This document shows, piece by piece, positions 43,416 through 57,969 of a stretch of DNA of 64,000 bases. Origin of the DNA: Nitrosopumilus sp. (GTDB taxonomy: Archaea > Thermoproteota > Nitrososphaeria > Nitrososphaerales > Nitrosopumilaceae); NCBI GenBank assembly GCA_965249555.1, contig OZ252243.1:1728001-1792000 (forward strand), in the 5' to 3' direction. A program made the position numbers and the translations under genes. The notes below the pieces were generated by a model that worked only from the letters and a program-made list of their open reading frames with translations, did no database searches and was not told where the DNA came from. How positions within the stretch are numbered: position 1 is the first letter of the stretch; each line of letters opens with the position of its first letter.

Positions 43416-44927
<1,512 letters not shown>

Positions 44928-51547: not shown

Positions 51548-53184
51548 ATGGATATCACTTCTATAAATCTATTAAATTCATTGGTATAGCGAAGAGTCAA
51601 AGTTCGTGAACTAAAAATCATCAAAACAAAACACTTTTTGATCACCACACACAATGAAACACATGAACAAGTTAGAACAGCTTGAAGCAGCATACAAAAA
51701 GGAAAACTTCAAAGATATAGTCAGGATGCTTGCAGTACTAATGGTTCTCAAAGATGGCAAGGAATTAGAGTACACCGCACAAACACTGCACCGCTGTACA
51801 AACTGGGTACGCAAATGGGTTGATCGTTTTAACGTAGATGGCCTTGATGGCCTCTACGATCACCCAAGGAGTGAAAGACCATGTGTAATCCCAAAGAAGC
51901 AAATGAATTCTATTATGTTCAAAATTATGTTGACACTATTTACACCTGTAATGCTGCAGCAGACAATATTTGATTCTACTGGAATAAAATTTCACATAAC
52001 ACATGTCAGAAAAATAATGCGCCAGTATGGAATGTCTGCTAAAACTGCACAAAAATATCACGTTAATCATGCAAGTGTAACGGCTGTGCGCAGCTGGGCA
52101 GCAACGCATGAAAAAGAGAATTCCACGCCTAAAAAAGAGTGGATTCACCATTGCAATGCTTGATGAGGCATTCTTTGTTAGGGATGTAAAAGCAGGACGA
52201 AAATATTGGTCACCAGTTGCCAAAAGAATATTTCTCCCATATGTGGGAAACCATGAAAGTTTGGCAGTGTATGGAACAATTACAATCAATGGAGACCAAC
52301 TGTTTAGAATTTATAAAAAATTCAACGGTATAACATTTGTAGAATATCTAAAAGAGTTGCACTACAAATATGGTAAAATTGCGTTGATACTTGACAGGGC
52401 ATCAGTGCACAAATCAAAGAAGGTCAAGGACTTTTTGACAGATAATCCAGATGTTAAACTGATTTGGCTACCAAAAGGACCCACCATATCTAAACATGAT
52501 AGAGCAGTGTTGGAAAATAGGCAAGCATGTGTTGTTGGTATCAGAATATTATGCAATGTTTACAATAATGAATAATGCAGTGTCACAATACTTTGGAACA
52601 AAAAAATTCAAACTTGATGTTGTTAATTATATTTTTAGAAATCCTGCAAAGATGTTCACGAACTTTTGATCGTCGCTATATCACAAATTAAAAGAATTAA
52701 AATCAAAGATATTTTTGATCAAGAAAAATTTAACACTCTTGCTAAAAATCAAAAGTTTTTTTCACTATTAACAAATGTCAAAAATCTTTATTCTAGTCCT
52801 GAGTTTAACAAAGCATCCCCAAGAGTTATTGTAACGATTACTAAAAAAATTAGGATGATTGTAAAGAAATCTTTGAAAGAACATGAAAAATATAATCTTA
52901 AAGAAACTGATCTTGAAAAATTAATGTCAATTTCTAAAATTTTGTTAGATTGTTTGAATTACATCAATCAACTTAGTGAAAAGAAGATGACAGATACAAT
53001 ACAATTTGAAGTTGAAAATGAAATTGAAATTATGGAATTAATATTAAAACAATATCCTGAAACGACTTCTATGATAAAGGGATATGAATTCAATCCAAAC
53101 GATTATTTCAAGATTATATACGAAAATGCCTTGCATTCAGCTTATTCTATGTCTCTATTTGTTCTAGGTCGTAAATGGTGGTAA
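51548..53184 (+). pseudogene. Hypothetical 180-aa gene interrupted by IS630
   Basis: MDITSINLLNSLV (51548-51586) joins in frame to SQIKRIKIKD (52681-) after removing the IS and one TA; TATA-like TATATAAA about 25 nt upstream. Confidence 0.75.
51587..52678 (+). mobile_element. IS630-family insertion sequence (about 1.09 kb), transposase frameshifted
   Basis: IRs TAGCGAAGAGTCAAAGTTCGTGAAC / TAGCGACGATCAAAAGTTCGTGAAC with TA duplication; HTH (WVRKWVDRF..GLDGL), LDEA, ILDRA..H, and PYLNMIEQCW in a shifted frame. Confidence 0.9.
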
Positions 53185-53268: not shown

Positions 53269-53463
53269 TTATTGCTTGGATTTATTCAAATTACGTAAAA
53301 AATTTAGTAATTCAAAAAGTGTTGCTCTTCCATTATGATCAACATTGTCAAAATCATTTAAAAAATCATATGCATATTTATCGTCATAATTCCATATAGC
53401 ACTTAATCCCAATCTAAAATCGTATATATTTAACAATTGATTTGTTGATGATTCTATTGTCAT
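53269..53463 (-). CDS. Small hypothetical protein
   Basis: 64-aa ATG ORF divergent from the first glycosylase. Confidence 0.4.
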   Translation of the reverse strand: MTIESSTNQLLNIYDFRLGLSAIWNYDDKYAYDFLNDFDNVDHNGRATLFELLNFLRNLNKSKQ

Positions 53464-53503
53464 TCATTTAAACATATAAGACATTTTTTTCCAGTAAAAG
53501 AAA

Positions 53504-54031
53504 ATGGTTGAGAAACTTAAACCTCTACGTGATATTATTAAAAAAAATTTAAGAATATTATTTGTTGGAACTCGACCCGGAATTCGTTCATCGAAAACGG
53601 GCCATTATTTCCCAGGAAATTCTAATATGTTTTGGAAATTATTGTATCAATCAAAATTAACTGGAGAAATGCTTTCACATAAACAGGACTCAAAATTAAT
53701 TGAGTATAATTATGGTCTTACAGATATAGTGAAAAAACCAAAAATAAGTAACACGATTAATTTTACAGATACTCTTGATAGCACTAATAGATTAAATAGA
53801 TTATTAATCAAATTTCAACCCAAAATAGTATCTTTTGTTGGAAAAAGAGGATATCAGATTTACACTCAAAGACTAACTCAAAAATATGAATATGGATATA
53901 AAGGAAAATATTACAAAACCAGAATATGTCTTATCCCATCATCTAGTGGACAAAGTTATGCAGATACATCATATGATGAGAAATTACATTGGTATAAATC
54001 ACTTAAACGATATCTTGAAACTTTTTCTTAA
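53504..54031 (+). CDS. MUG/TDG-family (UDG family 2) DNA glycosylase, variant active site
   Basis: ILFVGTRPG (canonical GxNPG), GHYF...NMFWKLL, YGLTDIV, FVGK, IPSSSG. Confidence 0.85.
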   Translation: MVEKLKPLRDIIKKNLRILFVGTRPGIRSSKTGHYFPGNSNMFWKLLYQSKLTGEMLSHKQDSKLIEYNYGLTDIVKKPKISNTINFTDTLDSTNRLNRLLIKFQPKIVSFVGKRGYQIYTQRLTQKYEYGYKGKYYKTRICLIPSSSGQSYADTSYDEKLHWYKSLKRYLETFS

Positions 54032-55028
54032 ATAGATTCAAGTTTAACACAGCTAATCTTTTATAATTTTCATCCAATAACTGTAAAGCTTTTTCTTCAT
54101 TTGTAGAATCTTTCACTTTGAATGCACCATAGCATAACAAAAGATATCCAAATTGTTTCCAATAAGGATCTATAAGGAAATTTTCTACCATAATAAATAA
54201 AGAATCAAAATCAAAACCCACATTATGATCTATTTTTGCAACTACTTTAGTACGGACAATAGATTCAAACTTGTTCATATCACGTAATTTGAAGTGTAAT
54301 TTGGAATGTGGCATGGGTGGCATTTGAAAAGATGATGTTTTCGTATTAGACACAATTTTTTTAGCAACATCTAAATCTGTTTCATAAACGTGAAAACTAC
54401 CGCTAAAATGATTATATTTCCCAAGTTCAAATTGGTCATATTTTGGTTTTAATCTGTTTTGAACATATTCCTGTAACATTGTAAAAATAAACAAGTCATA
54501 CGGAAGTACCTTAAGAGCATCTTGACTCCTCATATAGATGACAGATTGTACTTGATTTTGACGAATAAGATATTGTAAGTTCAAGGTACATGGAATTTCT
54601 TCATGAGGAAGACCATGTTGATCAAATTGAGGTAAATACACTGATGCCACAGCTCTGCGTTTTGATGGATCCTCATCCAAAACACGCAATATATGTTCCA
54701 TTTGATTAAGGTGTTGAATCCCAAAAAGCCTAGGTCCATATGCCCCAATCACTTTTATTCCATCTGAGGAATAATCTTTTGCCCTGGGAACATAATATTC
54801 AATTGCTTCTAAATTAAAATTACCTTGAGTTATCCATAAAAAATGTCCTATGCATTGAAAAATATTCAAAGGACAAGTTTCATCAAACAAAAGTCTATCG
54901 CGAGGATTTCGTAATTCAAATTTGTAGGAGACTAATTCTTTGATATTACGTTTAACATCTTTTCTTGTTACATTTTCACCATGGATGATTATGTCTGATA
55001 ACACATCTCTCCATTGTTTGTCCCACAA
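54003..55028 (-). CDS. Thymidylate-synthase-superfamily protein, dCMP/CMP hydroxymethylase-like
   Basis: GAYGPRL, SKRRAV, IPCT (catalytic Cys), MRSQD...LPYD, GSFHVY; GGTGA Shine-Dalgarno 6 nt before the TTG start. Confidence 0.85.
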   Translation of the reverse strand: MWDKQWRDVLSDIIIHGENVTRKDVKRNIKELVSYKFELRNPRDRLLFDETCPLNIFQCIGHFLWITQGNFNLEAIEYYVPRAKDYSSDGIKVIGAYGPRLFGIQHLNQMEHILRVLDEDPSKRRAVASVYLPQFDQHGLPHEEIPCTLNLQYLIRQNQVQSVIYMRSQDALKVLPYDLFIFTMLQEYVQNRLKPKYDQFELGKYNHFSGSFHVYETDLDVAKKIVSNTKTSSFQMPPMPHSKLHFKLRDMNKFESIVRTKVVAKIDHNVGFDFDSLFIMVENFLIDPYWKQFGYLLLCYGAFKVKDSTNEEKALQLLDENYKRLAVLNLNLFKKKFQDIV

Positions 55029-55067
55029 ATATCATCACCAAATATCTAAATAATCATGAAATTATGA

Positions 55068-55571
55068 CTATTGGATTAGATTTAGTTTTACCAAGTCAAT
55101 TAGTATTTTGCGAACTAAAGATTCACTAAAATTTTTATATCCATAAGAGAGGTCTTGAAATAGATACCCTACAATTTCATCAAATTCTCTATCATGATAA
55201 TGTTCTTTTCGTATATAATATAATGATGCAGCAATTTCTAACCACTCTGTATCGTGTTTATATGGTTCTATTTTTTTTGCAAAATTAGCAATTTTTTCTT
55301 TGTTTAATCCTGTTTGTTCAGATGTAGATTCAACTTGCTGATCAATAATGCTATGGGCATCTTGAGAAACTTGTTTACAATATGGACCTCTAAGATACCA
55401 ATCAAATTCATAACCCAAATCAATACCAGATTCTTGTGCCAAGTAAGCAATTTTTTGAACTTTAAGCTTGTCATCAAATTCAGTCATTGAGATTTGTTTA
55501 TCAATTCCAGAGAAAAGCACTGCCAGTTTTTCCATATTTTCAGCCATTATTTCTGCCATAACCAAATTCAC
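55068..55571 (-). CDS. YwgA / SocA-Panacea-like protein
   Basis: KVQKIAYLAQ...YEFDWYLRGPY...LEIAASLYY. Confidence 0.65.
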   Translation of the reverse strand: MNLVMAEIMAENMEKLAVLFSGIDKQISMTEFDDKLKVQKIAYLAQESGIDLGYEFDWYLRGPYCKQVSQDAHSIIDQQVESTSEQTGLNKEKIANFAKKIEPYKHDTEWLEIAASLYYIRKEHYHDREFDEIVGYLFQDLSYGYKNFSESLVRKILIDLVKLNLIQ

Positions 55572-56006
55572 TTAATTAAAGATTCGGTTGGACTAAGATT
55601 CATTATCTGATCGATTTTTGACAAAATTTTTACTTTTAGATCATCAAATGATACGTAATTAATGATGGAAATTCCTGGCATTCCCAATTACTATTTTGGA
55701 TAGTTTTCTTTCAGAATGGATACAAAATATTATTTTCCCTAAAGTATACGCATACATAATCTCAATACCTACACCAATACTAGGATTAGATACATCTGCG
55801 ATCATAATGTCACATGTTGAGATGGCATCAATATCTCTTCGATAGATTTCTTTAGAATCTAAATTAGGGTTAGGATCTTGCCATATGACCCATTTGGAAA
55901 CAATATCTAGATCTATTTCTTTTAACATCCCAACAAGTTTTTTAGCATATTCGATATCTCTATTGTGTATCAAAGGAGTTGATAAGTAAATTTTCACATT
56001 TTTCAT
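55568..56006 (-). CDS. Nucleoside 2-deoxyribosyltransferase-family nucleotide N-hydrolase (DNPH1/Rcl/MilB-like); apparent +1 frameshift near the C-terminus
   Basis: KIYLS, IYRRD...CDIMIA, PSIGVGIE, LSKIVIG. Removing one G at about 55684 extends the ORF (MPGISIINYVSFDDL...) to a TGA overlapping the next GTG start. Confidence 0.8.
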
Positions 56007-56118
56007 AAGAATTCATGAAATAAAAATTTACAAAATTTTGTTAATAACTTCCAACAAGATTGGATGCAAAATTAAACTTGCAGTACGTATATTTTGTAGA
56101 AGAATCAAATAAATTATT

Positions 56119-56661
56119 GTGAGAACGTTACCAGATCATGTTTTTCCAAACATGGATGTCCTATTTGTTGGGACAAATCCAGGTATTAAATCTGCAAGAA
56201 TAGGTCACTATTTTGCAGGAACAAGTAATATGTTTTGGAGACTTTTGTATGAATCAAAATTAACTGAAGAAAGATTGAGAACCGAATTTGATTTCAAAAT
56301 TACAAATTACGGTTACGGATTAACTGACGTAGTAAAACGTCCCACAAGATCTACATCAGAATTAAGAAAAGATGATGGAAGAGGTTCAAGAAAAAGACTT
56401 GATGGTATTGTTGAAGAAAACTCGCCAAAAGTGGTTGCTTTTGTTGGAAAAGCAGGTTTTAGATATTATCTAGGCGATAATACAATAGAACTTCAATATG
56501 GTAAACAAAATTTAGAAATAAACAAATCCAATGTGTATTTACTTCCATCCACTAGTGGTCAGAGTTTTGCAGACACAAAATATCATGAAAAGCTTCATTG
56601 GTATAGAACGTTAAAACGATACGTAAATAGATTTTTGAATTATTCTCAAATAACATCCTAA
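56119..56661 (+). CDS. MUG/TDG-family mismatch-specific DNA glycosylase
   Basis: VLFVGTNPG, GHYFAG.SNMFW, YGLTDVVKRPT, FVGK, LPSTSG. Confidence 0.9.
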   Translation: MRTLPDHVFPNMDVLFVGTNPGIKSARIGHYFAGTSNMFWRLLYESKLTEERLRTEFDFKITNYGYGLTDVVKRPTRSTSELRKDDGRGSRKRLDGIVEENSPKVVAFVGKAGFRYYLGDNTIELQYGKQNLEINKSNVYLLPSTSGQSFADTKYHEKLHWYRTLKRYVNRFLNYSQITS

Positions 56662-57123: not shown

Positions 57124-57969
57124 ATGGAAATAATTGACAATTCTATAGTGGAACCTATTGAAATTCGAATGATTAGGCAATCTAAATTTCCAGTCAGATA
57201 TAAACTTCCCACAACTTCTCCCGAACTTGCAAATTTGAAATCTAGCATAAAAGAGCATGGATTACTACAACCTATTGTAATTAGGCCCATTGATCATGGA
57301 TTTGAGATAGTTGCAGGACATCGAAGATTCACCGCATGTAGATCACTGCATTGGAGATTCATCCCAAGTAAAATCAGGGATTTGTCTGATAAACAAGCAT
57401 ATGAAATTCAACTAACAGAGAACATTCAAAGAAAATCTATGGCACCTATAGAAGAAGCTGAAGCATATCAAAAATATGTTAATGAATTTGGTTGGGGTGG
57501 AGTAAGTGACCTTAGCCGAAAAATTGGAAAAAGTGAAGAGTATGTGTCTCATAGAATGCAGCTCTTAAAACTTTCAGATGATGTTAAAGAAAAGATAGTT
57601 CACAATGATTTGAGCGTAAGTCAGGCATTAGAACTAACTACTGTTGGCGCTTCACTGAAAAGTGAATTTGTAGATGAAATAGTAGACAACAAACTGACAG
57701 TAAAACAAATTAGAGTAATGAAAAAGAATGCTAAATCTGATCTATACAAACCAGTACCTAACAAAAATTCCAAGTCACTTAATTTGATAAAGAAAAGTAG
57801 TCTGGCACTAAAAATTACTCTCTCAAGAATTGATGACCTTATAGAAGACGCACATGGAATTCAACCAAAACAAAGAGTAGAATTGATAAAATTTTTGATG
57901 AGCCTCAGAATAAAGACTCATTCAATGATAGATGAAACTATCAAATTCAAAAAAGATTATTTAAAATAA
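57124..57969 (+). CDS. ParB/Spo0J-like protein
   Basis: SIKEHGLLQPIVIR, IVAGHRRF, ENIQRKSM.PIEEA, HTH. Confidence 0.9.
   Translation: MEIIDNSIVEPIEIRMIRQSKFPVRYKLPTTSPELANLKSSIKEHGLLQPIVIRPIDHGFEIVAGHRRFTACRSLHWRFIPSKIRDLSDKQAYEIQLTENIQRKSMAPIEEAEAYQKYVNEFGWGGVSDLSRKIGKSEEYVSHRMQLLKLSDDVKEKIVHNDLSVSQALELTTVGASLKSEFVDEIVDNKLTVKQIRVMKKNAKSDLYKPVPNKNSKSLNLIKKSSLALKITLSRIDDLIEDAHGIQPKQRVELIKFLMSLRIKTHSMIDETIKFKKDYLK

Follow-up and report, generated by a model that had tools for sequence, protein, structure and literature searches.

What does a thymidylate synthase (TS) homologue do on an archaeal chromosome when it carries Asp at the position where TS enzymes carry the Asn that specifies dUMP? 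Such a gene lies in our window, the whole 64,000-nucleotide stretch of Nitrosopumilus sp. DNA that was analysed (contig OZ252243.1, positions 1,728,001 to 1,792,000). An original prediction, made from the sequence alone, had proposed a (d)CMP methylase/hydroxymethylase distinct from housekeeping ThyA. Here we consider in turn the fold of the protein, its accessory status, its gene neighbours, its likely substrate and its predicted binding partner.

Fold and conserved residues of the TS-like protein

The gene, the codons of its key residues and the C-terminal extension are located as follows.

54003..55028, (-) strand: TS-like gene, encoding a MilA-like, cytosine-type thymidylate-synthase-fold protein of 341 aa with a TTG start
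54843-54845: His62 codon, ThyA Glu58 site
54657-54659: Arg124 codon, R126 site
54597-54599: Glu144 codon, ThyA L143 site
54588-54590: Cys147 codon, C146 site
54525-54527: Ser168 codon, S167 site
54519-54521: Asp170 codon, D169 site
54495-54497: Asp178 codon, ThyA N177 site
~54006-54320: helical C-terminal extension of the TS-like protein

Counting from 55028 placed the ORF and its Asp and Cys codons exactly at the coordinates originally given for them. Residue numbering was anchored on E. coli ThyA (NC_000913) by MAFFT and by a second alignment of 140 sequences, and was validated by ThyA itself, which reads E58/L143/C146/S167/D169/N177 in the columns used. Both alignments put Asp178 in the ThyA Asn177 column, as had been claimed, and a HMMER alignment sets it opposite MilA Asp186 (numbering of the MilA paper, PMC5175136). 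Asp at the N177 site and Cys at the C146 site were each found in 127/127 family members, so the placement of the Asp is no chance alignment. Across the same 127 sequences, the S167 and R126 residues were each conserved in 126, and H207 and Y209 in all; the L143 site held Glu in 99 and Asp in 25, and the D169 site held Asp in 103 and Asn in 23. The TS-like protein retains the nucleophilic Cys, the phosphate-binding Arg residues and the sugar-binding His/Tyr.

Pfam PF00303 scored 54.1 bits on the protein against a cut-off of 24.3, and its closest solved relative was MilA (phmmer E 5.9e-28; next match 1.1e-10). The structural alignment, proposed earlier as a check, likewise returned MilA as the best fold match (5jp9_B in Foldseek: E 4e-21; TMq 0.82/TMt 0.88; 334 aligned columns, extension included), whereas ThyA aligned more poorly, over only ~232-256 columns (TMq 0.54-0.60). 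The ORF is therefore a MilA-like member of the thymidylate-synthase fold. The ~100-aa helical C-terminal extension noticed at the outset is real, with helices at residues 244-340 of the predicted model (mean pLDDT 92.2), but it is not special to this protein, since MilA has the same extension; it also occurs in phage and bacterial relatives, and phrog_5131 spans residues 6-328.

Accessory status and the mobile cassette

The TS fold and the catalytic Cys would suit a thymidylate synthase that has diverged but still serves housekeeping dTMP synthesis, a reading that we regard as almost certainly wrong. The protein scored below every TS equivalog cut-off in NCBIfam: its best score was 74.3 bits against 174.55 for TIGR03283, followed by 33 against 108.35 for TIGR03284 and 35-49 against 325-405 for the NF0024xx models. 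In place of the ThyA triad N177/E58/L143, it has Asp178, His62 and Glu144. The genome was also checked for a separate thyX, as had been suggested, and encodes a tandem ThyX. Within the family, the TS-like gene was found in 1 of 200 other genomes sampled (2/201 including its own) and not in the remaining 199, and it is duplicated inside mobile cassettes: a second, diverged cassette copy is present in the same genome (L005:7784-8788 is its TS-like paralogue, with Gln at the Glu58 site and Asn at the D169 site). The TS-like gene is accessory and, as the original prediction had it, not housekeeping. The cassette TS-like sequences form a monophyletic clade (support 1.0) on a long stem. The second copy, the conserved cassette and the replacement of Glu58 by His had all been overlooked before.

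The gene belongs to a mobile cassette of ~3.2 kb that is conserved in Nitrosopumilaceae. Its features in the window, besides the TS-like gene, are listed below.

53456..56644, no strand assigned: shared cassette unit; contigs of another organism match the window over this span only
53504..54031, (+) strand: TDG/MUG-family (family 2 UDG) paralogue of 175 aa, convergent with the TS-like gene with a 3' overlap of 29 bp
53573-53575, (+) strand: Arg24 of this downstream paralogue, in place of the catalytic Asn of GxNPG (GTRPG in the window)
55068..55571, (-) strand: DarG-C-terminal-domain-like protein of 167 aa (JGI name 'YwgA'), co-oriented with the TS-like gene, which begins 39 bp further downstream
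55568..56006, (-) strand: DNPH1/MilB-like nucleotide N-glycosidase (Pfam Nuc_deoxyrib_tr), carrying a frameshift in this genome
56119..56661, (+) strand: TDG/MUG-family glycosylase of 180 aa, divergent from the N-glycosidase/DarG-C-like/TS-like unit
56176-56178, (+) strand: Asn20 of 56119-56661, the catalytic Asn kept in the motif GTNPG

The order is a TDG/MUG-like glycosylase with the Asn, an optional DNPH1/MilB-like N-glycosidase, the DarG-C-like gene, the TS-like gene and a TDG/MUG-like paralogue with Ser or Arg. The contigs of the other organism (X4, X5) differ from the window by 18 and 45 letters in two pieces and carry unlike sequence beyond 53456-56644. A DarG-C-like gene lies directly upstream of the TS-like gene at all 15 loci where that side is visible, the downstream MUG paralogue is present at 16 of 17 assessable loci and the upstream Asn-type MUG at 11 of 12, and the N-glycosidase at 5 of 12. 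Neither the DarG-C-like nor a MUG partner was found at any of 117 more distant TS loci. Gene contexts of the bacterial relatives were read from metagenome and viral contigs.

The cassette locus lies in a low-GC stretch (0.29-0.31 versus ~0.33-0.36), and in the window an integrase-like ORF and a frameshifted IS630 adjoin it. The flanks vary among loci, with IS630, IS66, rve and tyrosine integrases among them, and they also hold HipA-like kinase, type I R-M and HEPN/NERD genes. A ParB-like gene (57124-57969) was considered as a further cassette member and rejected, as tblastn was negative at seven other loci searched. PADLOC models matched none of the TS-like protein, the two glycosylases and the N-glycosidase, and a dNMP kinase or other gene that would drive a product to the triphosphate is absent from the cassette loci. 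Literature searches on thymidylate synthase with glycosylase, defence, toxin-antitoxin and neighbourhoods found no description of the cassette, the supplementary tables of PMC13092281 lying outside their scope.

This architecture bears on whether the cassette might, like phage hypermodification systems, put a modified cytosine as a mark into the DNA of its own element, a provirus or the host. The TS-like enzyme would supply the precursor, and the glycosylases would edit or police the mark. The nearest outgroup consists of prophage and phage TS homologues, and an aGPT-Pplase3/ADDT hypermodification enzyme adjoins the TS gene in 69 of the 117 distant loci; phage G gp319 has a glucosyltransferase and a dCMP deaminase in its vicinity. 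The ParB-like gene after the cassette in the window fits as well, given the ParB homologues that PMC13229309 describes in hypermodification clusters, but it was not found at the seven other loci searched. Moreover, aGPT-Pplase-type partners occur at no cassette locus, and a unit of just ~3.2 kb has no dNMP kinase, dCTPase, polymerase, transferase or structural genes. We therefore hold self-modification to be quite improbable.

Glycosylases and N-glycosidase

The upstream glycosylase (56119-56661) matched E. coli MUG at 2.8e-22 and human TDG at 2e-20, with GTNPG aligned to GINPG, and the catalytic Asn was found in 11/11 upstream copies. The downstream paralogue (53504-54031) is a family 2 UDG by sequence and lacks this Asn; among 15 readable copies, 13 have Ser and one has Asn, and the window copy has Arg. 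It may not be an enzyme. MUG-type genes occur in 6 of 201 family genomes (one of them, G077, unpublished), and those of the close cassette type only in G000, G109 and G080. TDG is described in PMC8833622 as removing 5-OH-C, 5-hmU and 5-OH-U.

The N-glycosidase matched DNPH1, a 5-hydroxymethyl-dUMP N-hydrolase, at 4.4e-8 and MilB at 1.6e-6. In the window its ORF (55659-56006) ends after 115 aa, and the conserved C-terminal part runs on out of frame; at 55688, contigs from a close relative are one base shorter, so that the reading frame is restored.

Predicted substrate and chemistry

For MilA, PMC5175136 reports that Asp186 directs the enzyme to cytosine and that Lys133/Ala176 confer a preference for ribose (CMP), their mutation switching the enzyme to dCMP. 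Residue criteria for substrate and product, including D169N as diagnostic of the flavin-dependent group, are given in sections 24 and 28 of PMC13326640. Asp at the N177 site and the acidic residue at the L143 site support a cytosine-type substrate signature, in line with the original prediction. Its observation that GSFHVY is nearer to GSLHVY of T4 gp42 than to GDTHLY of ThyA was borne out by alignment. The TS-like protein has Ser168/Arg124 where the CMP-specific MilA and BcmA have Ala/Lys, and 126/127 relatives carry the Arg/Ser pair. Since this pair marks 2'-deoxy substrates, the proposed "(d)CMP" can be narrowed, and dCMP rather than CMP is the predicted substrate. The acidic residue that replaces ThyA Leu143 occupies a position linked to non-methyl products.

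The kinship with MilA raises the prospect of a free base or secondary metabolite, in which cytidylate hydroxymethylated by the TS-like enzyme would be cleaved by the N-glycosidase to free 5-hydroxymethylcytosine, as in the MilA/MilB (mildiomycin) and BcmA/BcmB (bacimethrin) pairs. MilA is the best match in both structure and sequence, and at 5 loci only one gene stands between the TS-like gene and a MilB/DNPH1-like N-glycosidase. However, the Lys/Ala residues that specify ribose in MilA and BcmA are replaced by Arg/Ser, the N-glycosidase is optional among the 12 assessable loci and broken in the window, there are no downstream tailoring genes, and the invariably linked partners are DNA glycosylases. 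Such a pathway seems to us very improbable.

The proposed methylase/hydroxymethylase chemistry fared less well. His62 meets MilA Glu68 without gaps in the HMMER alignment. The Glu58-equivalent protonates methylene-THF and, according to PMC6400193, is conserved across all characterised family members. In the cassette clade, Gln or His occupies this site at all 18 readable loci, one further locus being gapped, whereas Glu58 is kept in 48/49 viral and 65/67 metagenomic relatives; its loss coincides exactly with cassette membership. Gln is found at the C168 position, within an RSQ(D/N) motif, at 19/19 cassette loci. With His62 in place of the catalytic Glu, methylase/hydroxymethylase chemistry becomes uncertain. 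The loss of Glu58 could signify a very slow enzyme or a non-catalytic binder, and its clade-wide replacement with everything else kept points to altered chemistry or an altered role.

The altered role could be that of a pseudoenzyme or sensor. The TS-like protein would perform no turnover but would bind a viral cytosine or modified-cytosine deoxynucleotide, perhaps covalently through Cys147, and together with the DarG-C-like partner would control TDG-like glycosylases that attack modified viral DNA in a Brig1-like manner. The loss of Glu58, which is kept by every characterised member (PMC6400193) but by none of the 18 readable cassette loci, is consistent with this, as is the variation of D169, a folate-pterin contact. 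PMC11078745 describes how UDG-superfamily glycosylases can act on their own as anti-phage effectors that target modified cytosines, and no partner of the TS-like gene is more constant than the glycosylases. Nevertheless, all other catalytic and substrate-binding residues are invariant, beyond what binding needs, and general-acid function is possible for His; the glycosylases are transcribed separately from the TS-like gene, with no evident signalling link to the TS-like protein. We consider this role unlikely.

A predicted DarG-C-like binding partner

The protein encoded directly upstream (55068-55571) matched DarG in NCBIfam (E 2.5e-6) and PADLOC (1e-6). Its model aligned with 7yk3_D in VIA-align at Z 11.4 (rmsd 3.3, 144 aligned residues; next chain, Z 4.6), a Foldseek search supported the same assignment with probability 1.0 and TM 0.56, and the protein is classed here as a DarG C-terminal, toxin-binding domain. 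Pfam gave no significant match for 8 members scanned at E up to 10; a kinship with Panacea/DUF4065 was considered and found no support in that scan. A literature search on 'YwgA' returned nothing relevant. No DarT and no DarG macrodomain were detected in any cassette protein by Pfam, NCBIfam or PADLOC.

The complex of the TS-like and DarG-C-like proteins was modelled with a score of 0.67 (median of three runs) against 0.15 for the best control. For comparison, 116 of 157 solved complexes attained this mark, as did 2 of 215 mismatched pairs, although our custom alignments fall outside the setting in which the method was calibrated. At least 72% of contacts recur between runs, and the partner is modelled with a pLDDT of at least 80. 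The predicted interface joins the invariant WYxRGPYCK hairpin of the partner to residues 192-198 of the TS-like protein, which lie within a clade-specific insertion. The modelling supports the DarG-C-like protein as a predicted binding partner of the TS-like protein.

DarG-C-like paralogues occur in 29 of 201 family genomes (one of them, G092, unpublished), with up to 13 copies per genome. Directly after each of the seven copies examined, at seven loci (L149-L153, L155, L156), lies a small same-strand ORF of 80-154 aa; two further loci, L154 and L157, hold cassette-type DarG-C-like copies. Pfam named none of these small ORFs, three of which are mutually homologous, and PIN or ParE toxins lie two genes off in two loci. 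These arrangements are suggestive of a modular use of the DarG-C-like domain.

Proposed mechanism and its implications

On balance, we lean towards a cassette that is a mobile DarTG-like toxin/immunity or anti-virus module built on C5-modified dCMP, rather than a biosynthetic or housekeeping unit. Every step of the following mechanism beyond the binding of a cytosine deoxynucleotide is one that we infer. Cys147 of the TS-like enzyme would attack C6 of dCMP, and a C5 substituent would be installed, either a hydroxymethyl or, by a non-folate route, a hydroxyl; the latter option is raised by the loss of the folate-activating Glu, the RSQ(D/N) motif and the members with D169N. The modified deoxycytidine would pass into the nucleotide pool and then into DNA. 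The DarG-C-like protein may bind and hold or tune the TS-like enzyme, as the same domain does for DarT, for which a dual action of DarG has been described (PMC8832971). In DNA, the TDG-like glycosylases could excise the modified base, whether as such or deaminated to its uracil form; among free nucleotides, the DNPH1-like hydrolase could destroy the modified mononucleotide.

A more specific version of this module is possible but doubtful. It would be an undescribed archaeal immunity or addiction module acting through the nucleotide pool, in which a Glu-less TS-fold enzyme makes C5-modified dCMP, possibly 5-hydroxy-dCMP by non-folate chemistry, with toxic effect on (viral) DNA as it replicates. 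Restraint of the enzyme would fall to a stand-alone DarG-C-type partner, and the TDG-like pair, one catalytic and one reader-like, would with the DNPH1-like hydrolase execute damage or cleanse the host, making the cassette a split, rewired analogue of DarTG.

At locus L010, an inserted IS interrupts the DarG-C-like gene and the TS-like ORF is intact, which conflicts with a strict toxin/antitoxin relation unless the TS-like enzyme there is silent or dead. Several observations also run against a toxin or defence module: the sporadic and, in the window, frameshifted N-glycosidase, the missing triphosphate-forming gene and the blank PADLOC result for the TS-like protein and glycosylases. A precedent speaks for such a module: a system containing a TS homologue has been validated as anti-phage defence in E. 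coli, as reported in PMC13092281.

Cytosine-type TS homologues are already known from phages and antibiotic pathways, and the enzyme class alone is not new. What is new is that a whole clade replaces the Glu called catalytic in every characterised TS, dCMP hydroxymethylase and MilA, and that this loss coincides exactly with the recruitment of two TDG/MUG-type glycosylases and a DarG-C-type protein into one mobile cassette. Also new is the occurrence in ammonia-oxidising archaea, a group with a poorly known repertoire of defence and toxin-antitoxin systems. The TDG-like enzymes could have practical use as glycosylases for modified cytosines.

Comparison with known systems

MilA, the CMP 5-hydroxymethylase of Streptomyces rimofaciens (PDB 5b6d/5jnh/5jp9), and BcmA share with the TS-like protein the extension, the Cys, the Asp, the acidic L143 site and the His/Tyr sugar contacts. 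The TS-like protein differs from MilA in having Ser168/Arg124 for Ala176/Lys133 and His62 for the catalytic Glu68, and it is accompanied by DNA glycosylases and a DarG-C-like protein rather than by an antibiotic gene cluster.

The dCMP hydroxymethylase of phage T4, gp42, shares the substrate dCMP (predicted here for the archaeal protein), the Asp/Ser/Arg signature, the acidic L143 site and GS(L/F)HVY. It is distant, however (phmmer E 2.8e-5), keeps Glu60 and is without the C-terminal extension. It also operates in a virus with a dCTPase, a kinase and glucosyltransferases, none of which the cassette has.

The flavin-dependent 5-hydroxy-dCMP synthases (RB69 gp48 and DLP3 gp80; PDB 9iqu/9iqc) are the second-best solved relatives (E 1.1e-10). 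All 19 cassette loci share with RB69 gp48 the MRSQ(D/N) motif, whose Gln occupies the C168 position, and the D169N of these synthases is found in the second copy of this genome and in 23/127 family members, the window copy having Asp170. Unlike the TS-like protein, RB69 gp48 keeps Glu58 and is short (238 aa), without the extension.

In the TS-homologue anti-phage systems (DefensePredictor, Science 2026; PMC13092281), TS homologues are described as part of chromosomal accessory modules with an effect on phage infection. The partners reported for those anti-phage and prophage systems are a dNMP kinase, a 5-hmdU DNA kinase, NMAD or aGPT-Pplase, none of which occurs in the archaeal cassette, and the TS homologues of viral and metagenomic relatives keep Glu58 (113/116 loci together), unlike the cassette.

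The likeness to DarTG lies in an upstream protein with the DarG C-terminal toxin-binding fold, predicted to bind its enzyme neighbour, in predicted lesion-removing enzymes that recall the DarG macrodomain, and in a mobile accessory context. Where DarTG has DarT and a macrodomain, the cassette has neither; its putative toxin would be a nucleotide enzyme of the TS fold that targets the precursor pool, and its removing enzymes would be TDG/MUG glycosylases from separate genes. If the favoured module is real, it would be a single system that combines modification of the nucleotide pool with base excision and an antitoxin-type domain, and it would give DarTG and the recently validated bacterial TS-homologue defence systems an archaeal counterpart that is open to testing.

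A MilA-like thymidylate synthase homologue with a cytosine signature

The gene under study encodes a thymidylate synthase-like (TS-like) protein:
54003-55028, minus strand: TS-like ORF, 341 aa, TTG start

Its product matched Pfam PF00303 (54.1 bits; cut-off, 24.3), indicating a thymidylate-synthase fold, and missed all NCBIfam TS equivalog cut-offs (best, 74.3 versus 174.55 bits). In phmmer searches, the closest solved relative was the CMP 5-hydroxymethylase MilA (E = 5.9e-28), followed by 9iqu/9iqc (1.1e-10), ordinary ThyA (~1e-6), and T4 dCMP hydroxymethylase (2.8e-5). Structural comparison also placed MilA closest: the AlphaFold model (mean pLDDT, 92.2) aligned with MilA 5jp9_B over 334 columns in Foldseek (TMq, 0.82), compared with ~232-256 columns (TMq, 0.54-0.60) for ThyA structures. 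The original prediction had described a helical C-terminal extension of ~100 aa that ThyA lacks; this was recovered as helices 244-340 and is common to MilA and the TS-like protein.

Alignment with E. coli ThyA, T4 gp42, and RB69 gp48, all from public records, gave H/E/C/S/D/D for the TS-like protein at the ThyA E58/L143/C146/S167/D169/N177 columns, E/D/C/S/D/D for T4 gp42, and E/E/C/S/N/D for RB69 gp48. With codons numbered from 55028, Cys147 (54588-54590) occupies the column of the catalytic C146, which is thus intact as originally proposed, and Asp178 (54495-54497) occupies that of the dUMP-specifying N177, where all 127 of 127 relatives also carry Asp. The aligned columns and the position of this residue therefore indicate that the proposed Asn-to-Asp difference is real. 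The suggested motif likeness was likewise visible in the alignment, in which GSFHVY resembled GSLHVY of T4 gp42 more closely than GDTHLY of ThyA.

Asp186 of MilA is associated with cytosine substrates, and its use of ribose has been tied to Lys133 and Ala176; deoxy-substrate enzymes carry Arg and Ser at these positions, and an A176S/K133R double mutant of MilA lost CMP use and favored dCMP (PMC5175136). Since the TS-like protein has Arg124 and Ser168 at these sites, as do 126/127 relatives, its predicted substrate is dCMP rather than CMP. Non-methyl products have been reported to correlate with an acidic residue at the L143 position, and D169N to be diagnostic of flavin-dependent 5-hydroxy-dCMP synthases (PMC13326640). 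The L143 position is Glu144 in the TS-like protein and the D169 site is Asp170, with Asn at the latter in 23/127 relatives. Taken alone, the enzyme adds one new member to the cytosine-type, MilA-like TS group. The earlier assignment as a (d)CMP methylase/hydroxymethylase thus held for its cytosine part, now narrowed to dCMP, while the chemistry was placed in doubt by the replacement of Glu58 with His62.

Genomic setting

The genome (2.23 Mb, single contig, 99.97% complete) contains the separate thyX whose presence was to be checked, ~25 kb past the window's end:
G000:C1:1816663-1818006 (L003/L004): ThyX, two Thy1 domains in tandem in one 546-aa frame

This tandem-domain ThyX is likely the housekeeping dTMP source. 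The TS-like gene occurred in 2 of 201 family genomes, its own included, and in none of the 16 other genomes from its genus. Together with the missed equivalog cut-offs, these results agree with the proposal that it is not a housekeeping thyA, and housekeeping dTMP synthesis by this gene was effectively excluded.

GC content around the gene was 0.29-0.31, versus about 0.33-0.36 elsewhere in the window. The low-GC stretch, bounded by arginyl-tRNA synthetase and solute symporter genes, also contains a weak integrase-like ORF and the following:
51654-52575: IS630-family transposase, broken by a frameshift into overlapping ORFs of 169 and 155 aa
57124-57969: ParB/Noc-like gene, just past the cassette described below

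Searches with tblastn found no ParB-like gene at seven other cassette loci, and it is probably a component of the island rather than of the cassette. The window also encodes a 503-aa ORF (43416-44927) with collagen triple-helix repeats (PF01391; E = 8.2e-55), which are unusual in an archaeon.

A conserved and mobile cassette

The TS-like gene is accompanied by four genes:
53504-54031, plus strand: MUG/TDG-family protein, transcribed toward the TS-like gene, whose 3' end it overlaps
55068-55571, minus strand: DarG-C-like protein, 167 aa, matching DarG models only
55659-56006 (ORF; whole gene, 55568-56006), minus strand: Nuc_deoxyrib_tr protein (DNPH1/MilB-like N-glycosidase), frameshifted
56119-56661, plus strand: second MUG/TDG-family protein

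Conservation was assessed over 19 close-clade loci, each counted once (the window, L005-L011, L069-L071, and L073-L080); L018 and L072 were left out because they appear to duplicate L006 and L008. The DarG-C-like gene lay immediately upstream of the TS-like gene in all 15 loci with that side on the contig. The downstream convergent MUG was found in 16/17 assessable loci (missing in L010, frameshifted in L007), the upstream MUG in 11/12 (missing in L005), and the N-glycosidase in 5/12. None of 117 more distant TS loci had a MUG-like or DarG-C-like neighbor.

In contigs of a close relative (X4/X5), the match to the window was restricted to 53456-56644 and sequences diverged beyond. The cassette therefore acts like a single unit placed in different surroundings. 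Other cassette loci were flanked by IS630, IS66, rve and tyrosine integrases, type I restriction-modification genes, and HEPN/NERD genes. Two loci have only some of the genes:
G000:C1:833262-835315 (L005:7263-9316): second, diverged cassette of the same genome, with DarG-C-like gene, TS-like gene (334 aa), and convergent MUG
G080:C2:833500-842000 (L154): decayed cassette of another family genome, with a MUG-like gene carrying an internal stop, an intact DarG-C-like gene, and no TS-like gene

The second cassette of the genome is without an upstream MUG or N-glycosidase; its TS-like protein is 52% identical to the window copy, with Gln at Glu58 and Asn at D169. An intact IS630 copy (320 aa; L005:12007-12969) adjoins it, and a HipA-like kinase gene lies nearby (L005:13166-13936). 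As an alternative to the working proposed below, and at lower odds, the cassette might mark a mobile element's own DNA.

Loss of Glu58

His62 aligns with Glu58 of ThyA, Glu60 of T4 gp42, and Glu68 of MilA. The Glu at this site is reported to protonate methylene-THF in every characterized family member (PMC6400193). Across the cassette clade (loci with context), this site was Gln in 13, His in 5, gapped in 1, and never Glu; among relatives outside the clade, also with context, Glu was kept by 48/49 viral-contig and 65/67 metagenomic sequences. Its 19 tips formed a monophyletic group (support, 1.0) set apart by a long stem (1.12 substitutions per site). The C168 position was Gln in 19/19 of its loci, matching RB69 gp48; T4 gp42 and most of the outgroup have Asn there. 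The E58Q mutant of ThyA is strongly impaired, and its structure (1zpr, by title) was among the structural matches.

One key folate-handling residue, Glu58, is therefore gone and a second, D169, is variable, while the nucleophile and every nucleotide contact are invariant. We read this pattern as a change of chemistry, possibly to hydroxylation independent of folate, or as a sign that the enzyme is slowed or regulatory. A non-catalytic sensor role is possible but given lower odds. The loss of Glu58, and its exact coupling to a cassette that pairs two TDG-like glycosylases with a partner of the DarG-C-like type, appear new here, as they were not found in the literature searched or in PADLOC.

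The outgroup loci (L020-L068 and L081-L148; viral and metagenomic contigs) encode long MilA-like TS proteins with Glu58 kept and the cytosine-type Asp in 115/116. The commonest neighbors in the 117 distant loci were aGPT-Pplase3/ADDT (69), whose family name refers to thymine hypermodification, and an M78-peptidase protein (60). These loci represent a prophage-type DNA-hypermodification context, which suggests cytosine-based hypermodification, or defense, in prophage-like elements. Separately, the TS homologue gp76 of Mycobacterium phage Papyrus (L016:4911-5912) has Arg in place of Glu58 and Asn at both D169 and N177, so that a uracil-type signature occurs together with D169N and without the Glu.

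Glycosylases and N-glycosidase

The two glycosylase paralogues were consistently distinct at the catalytic-Asn motif: the upstream type had the catalytic Asn (GTNPG) in 11/11 copies, and the downstream type, in 15 readable copies, had Ser in 13 and Asn in one, the window copy having Arg. The Asn type matched E. coli MUG (2.8e-22) and human TDG (2e-20), with the GHxxxG...NxFW stretch also aligned. TDG is described as excising 5-OH-C, 5-hmU, 5-OH-U, and related bases (PMC8833622).

The N-glycosidase carries the GVGxE catalytic motif. In the window it has one extra base at ~55688, and its conserved C-terminal part continues in another frame; the X4/X5 contigs are without this base, restoring the frame and predicting a full-length protein. 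Its nearest relative was DNPH1, deposited as "5-hydroxymethyl-dUMP N-hydrolase" (4.4e-8), ahead of MilB (1.6e-6). A MilA/MilB-like free-base pathway would account for the pairing of a MilA relative with such an enzyme, which only part of the cassettes contain, and is possible at lower odds.

The DarG-C-like partner

The DarG-C-like protein aligned to the region of DarG that follows the macrodomain (NCBIfam, E = 2.5e-6; PADLOC, 1e-6). The only clear structural relative of its model (mean pLDDT, 93.8) was the C-terminal domain of DarG as solved in complex with DarT from M. tuberculosis (Foldseek probability, 1.0; TM, 0.56; VIA-align Z, 11.4; rmsd, 3.3 over 144 residues; next chain Z, 4.6). DarG is reported both to remove the DNA modification and to directly bind and inhibit DarT (PMC8832971).

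Complex prediction with two TS-like chains and one DarG-C-like chain gave a median score of 0.67 over three runs, versus 0.15 for the best control; this mark was reached by 116/157 solved complexes and 2/215 mismatched pairs. Our own alignments and three-chain set-up lie outside the calibration of the method. The runs shared at least 72% of contacts, with partner pLDDT of at least 80. The predicted interface joins an invariant hairpin of the partner (residues 57-66) to TS-like residues 105-118, 192-198, and 242-246, of which 192-198 falls within a cassette-clade-specific insertion. No such complex was present among the Foldseek and VIA-align matches of both models, so the predicted binding is unlikely to reflect a memorized structure. 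The modeling thus supports binding of the TS-like protein by its partner.

The DarG-C-like domain family occurred in 29/201 family genomes (including the unpublished G092), with up to 13 copies per genome. In 7/7 non-cassette paralogue copies examined (G000:C1:171705-172396, or L149:3205-3896, and others among L150-L156), a small same-strand ORF followed directly; these ORFs (80-154 aa) had no Pfam match, and three were mutually homologous. Some loci add a membrane-protein gene, and two loci have PIN or ParE toxin genes at a distance of two genes. This arrangement fits, without proving, a modular antitoxin-like adaptor.

Proposed working and comparison with DarTG

The most likely working of the cassette, as we infer it, is a set of modification, restraint, excision, and hydrolysis steps. 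Cys147 would add to C6 of dCMP, with C5 gaining a hydroxymethyl or hydroxyl group, and the modified dCMP would be phosphorylated by host kinases and enter DNA. The DarG-C-like protein would bind the enzyme and restrain or tune it, the TDG-like glycosylases would cut out the modified base or the product of its deamination, and the DNPH1-like enzyme, where present, would hydrolyze the modified mononucleotide.

Counting against a DarTG-like reading, the cassette contains no kinase gene, PADLOC does not recognize it as a system, and in L010 an IS splits the partner gene while the TS-like ORF is intact. The frameshift within the TS-like gene in L011, and the persistence of a MUG remnant and the partner without the TS-like gene in G080, are compatible with toxin loss, whereas L010 is not. 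TS homologues have a precedent in anti-phage systems (PMC13092281). DarTG combines a DNA-damaging activity with an enzyme that removes the modification and a domain that sequesters the toxin, and the cassette would embody that logic with different parts.
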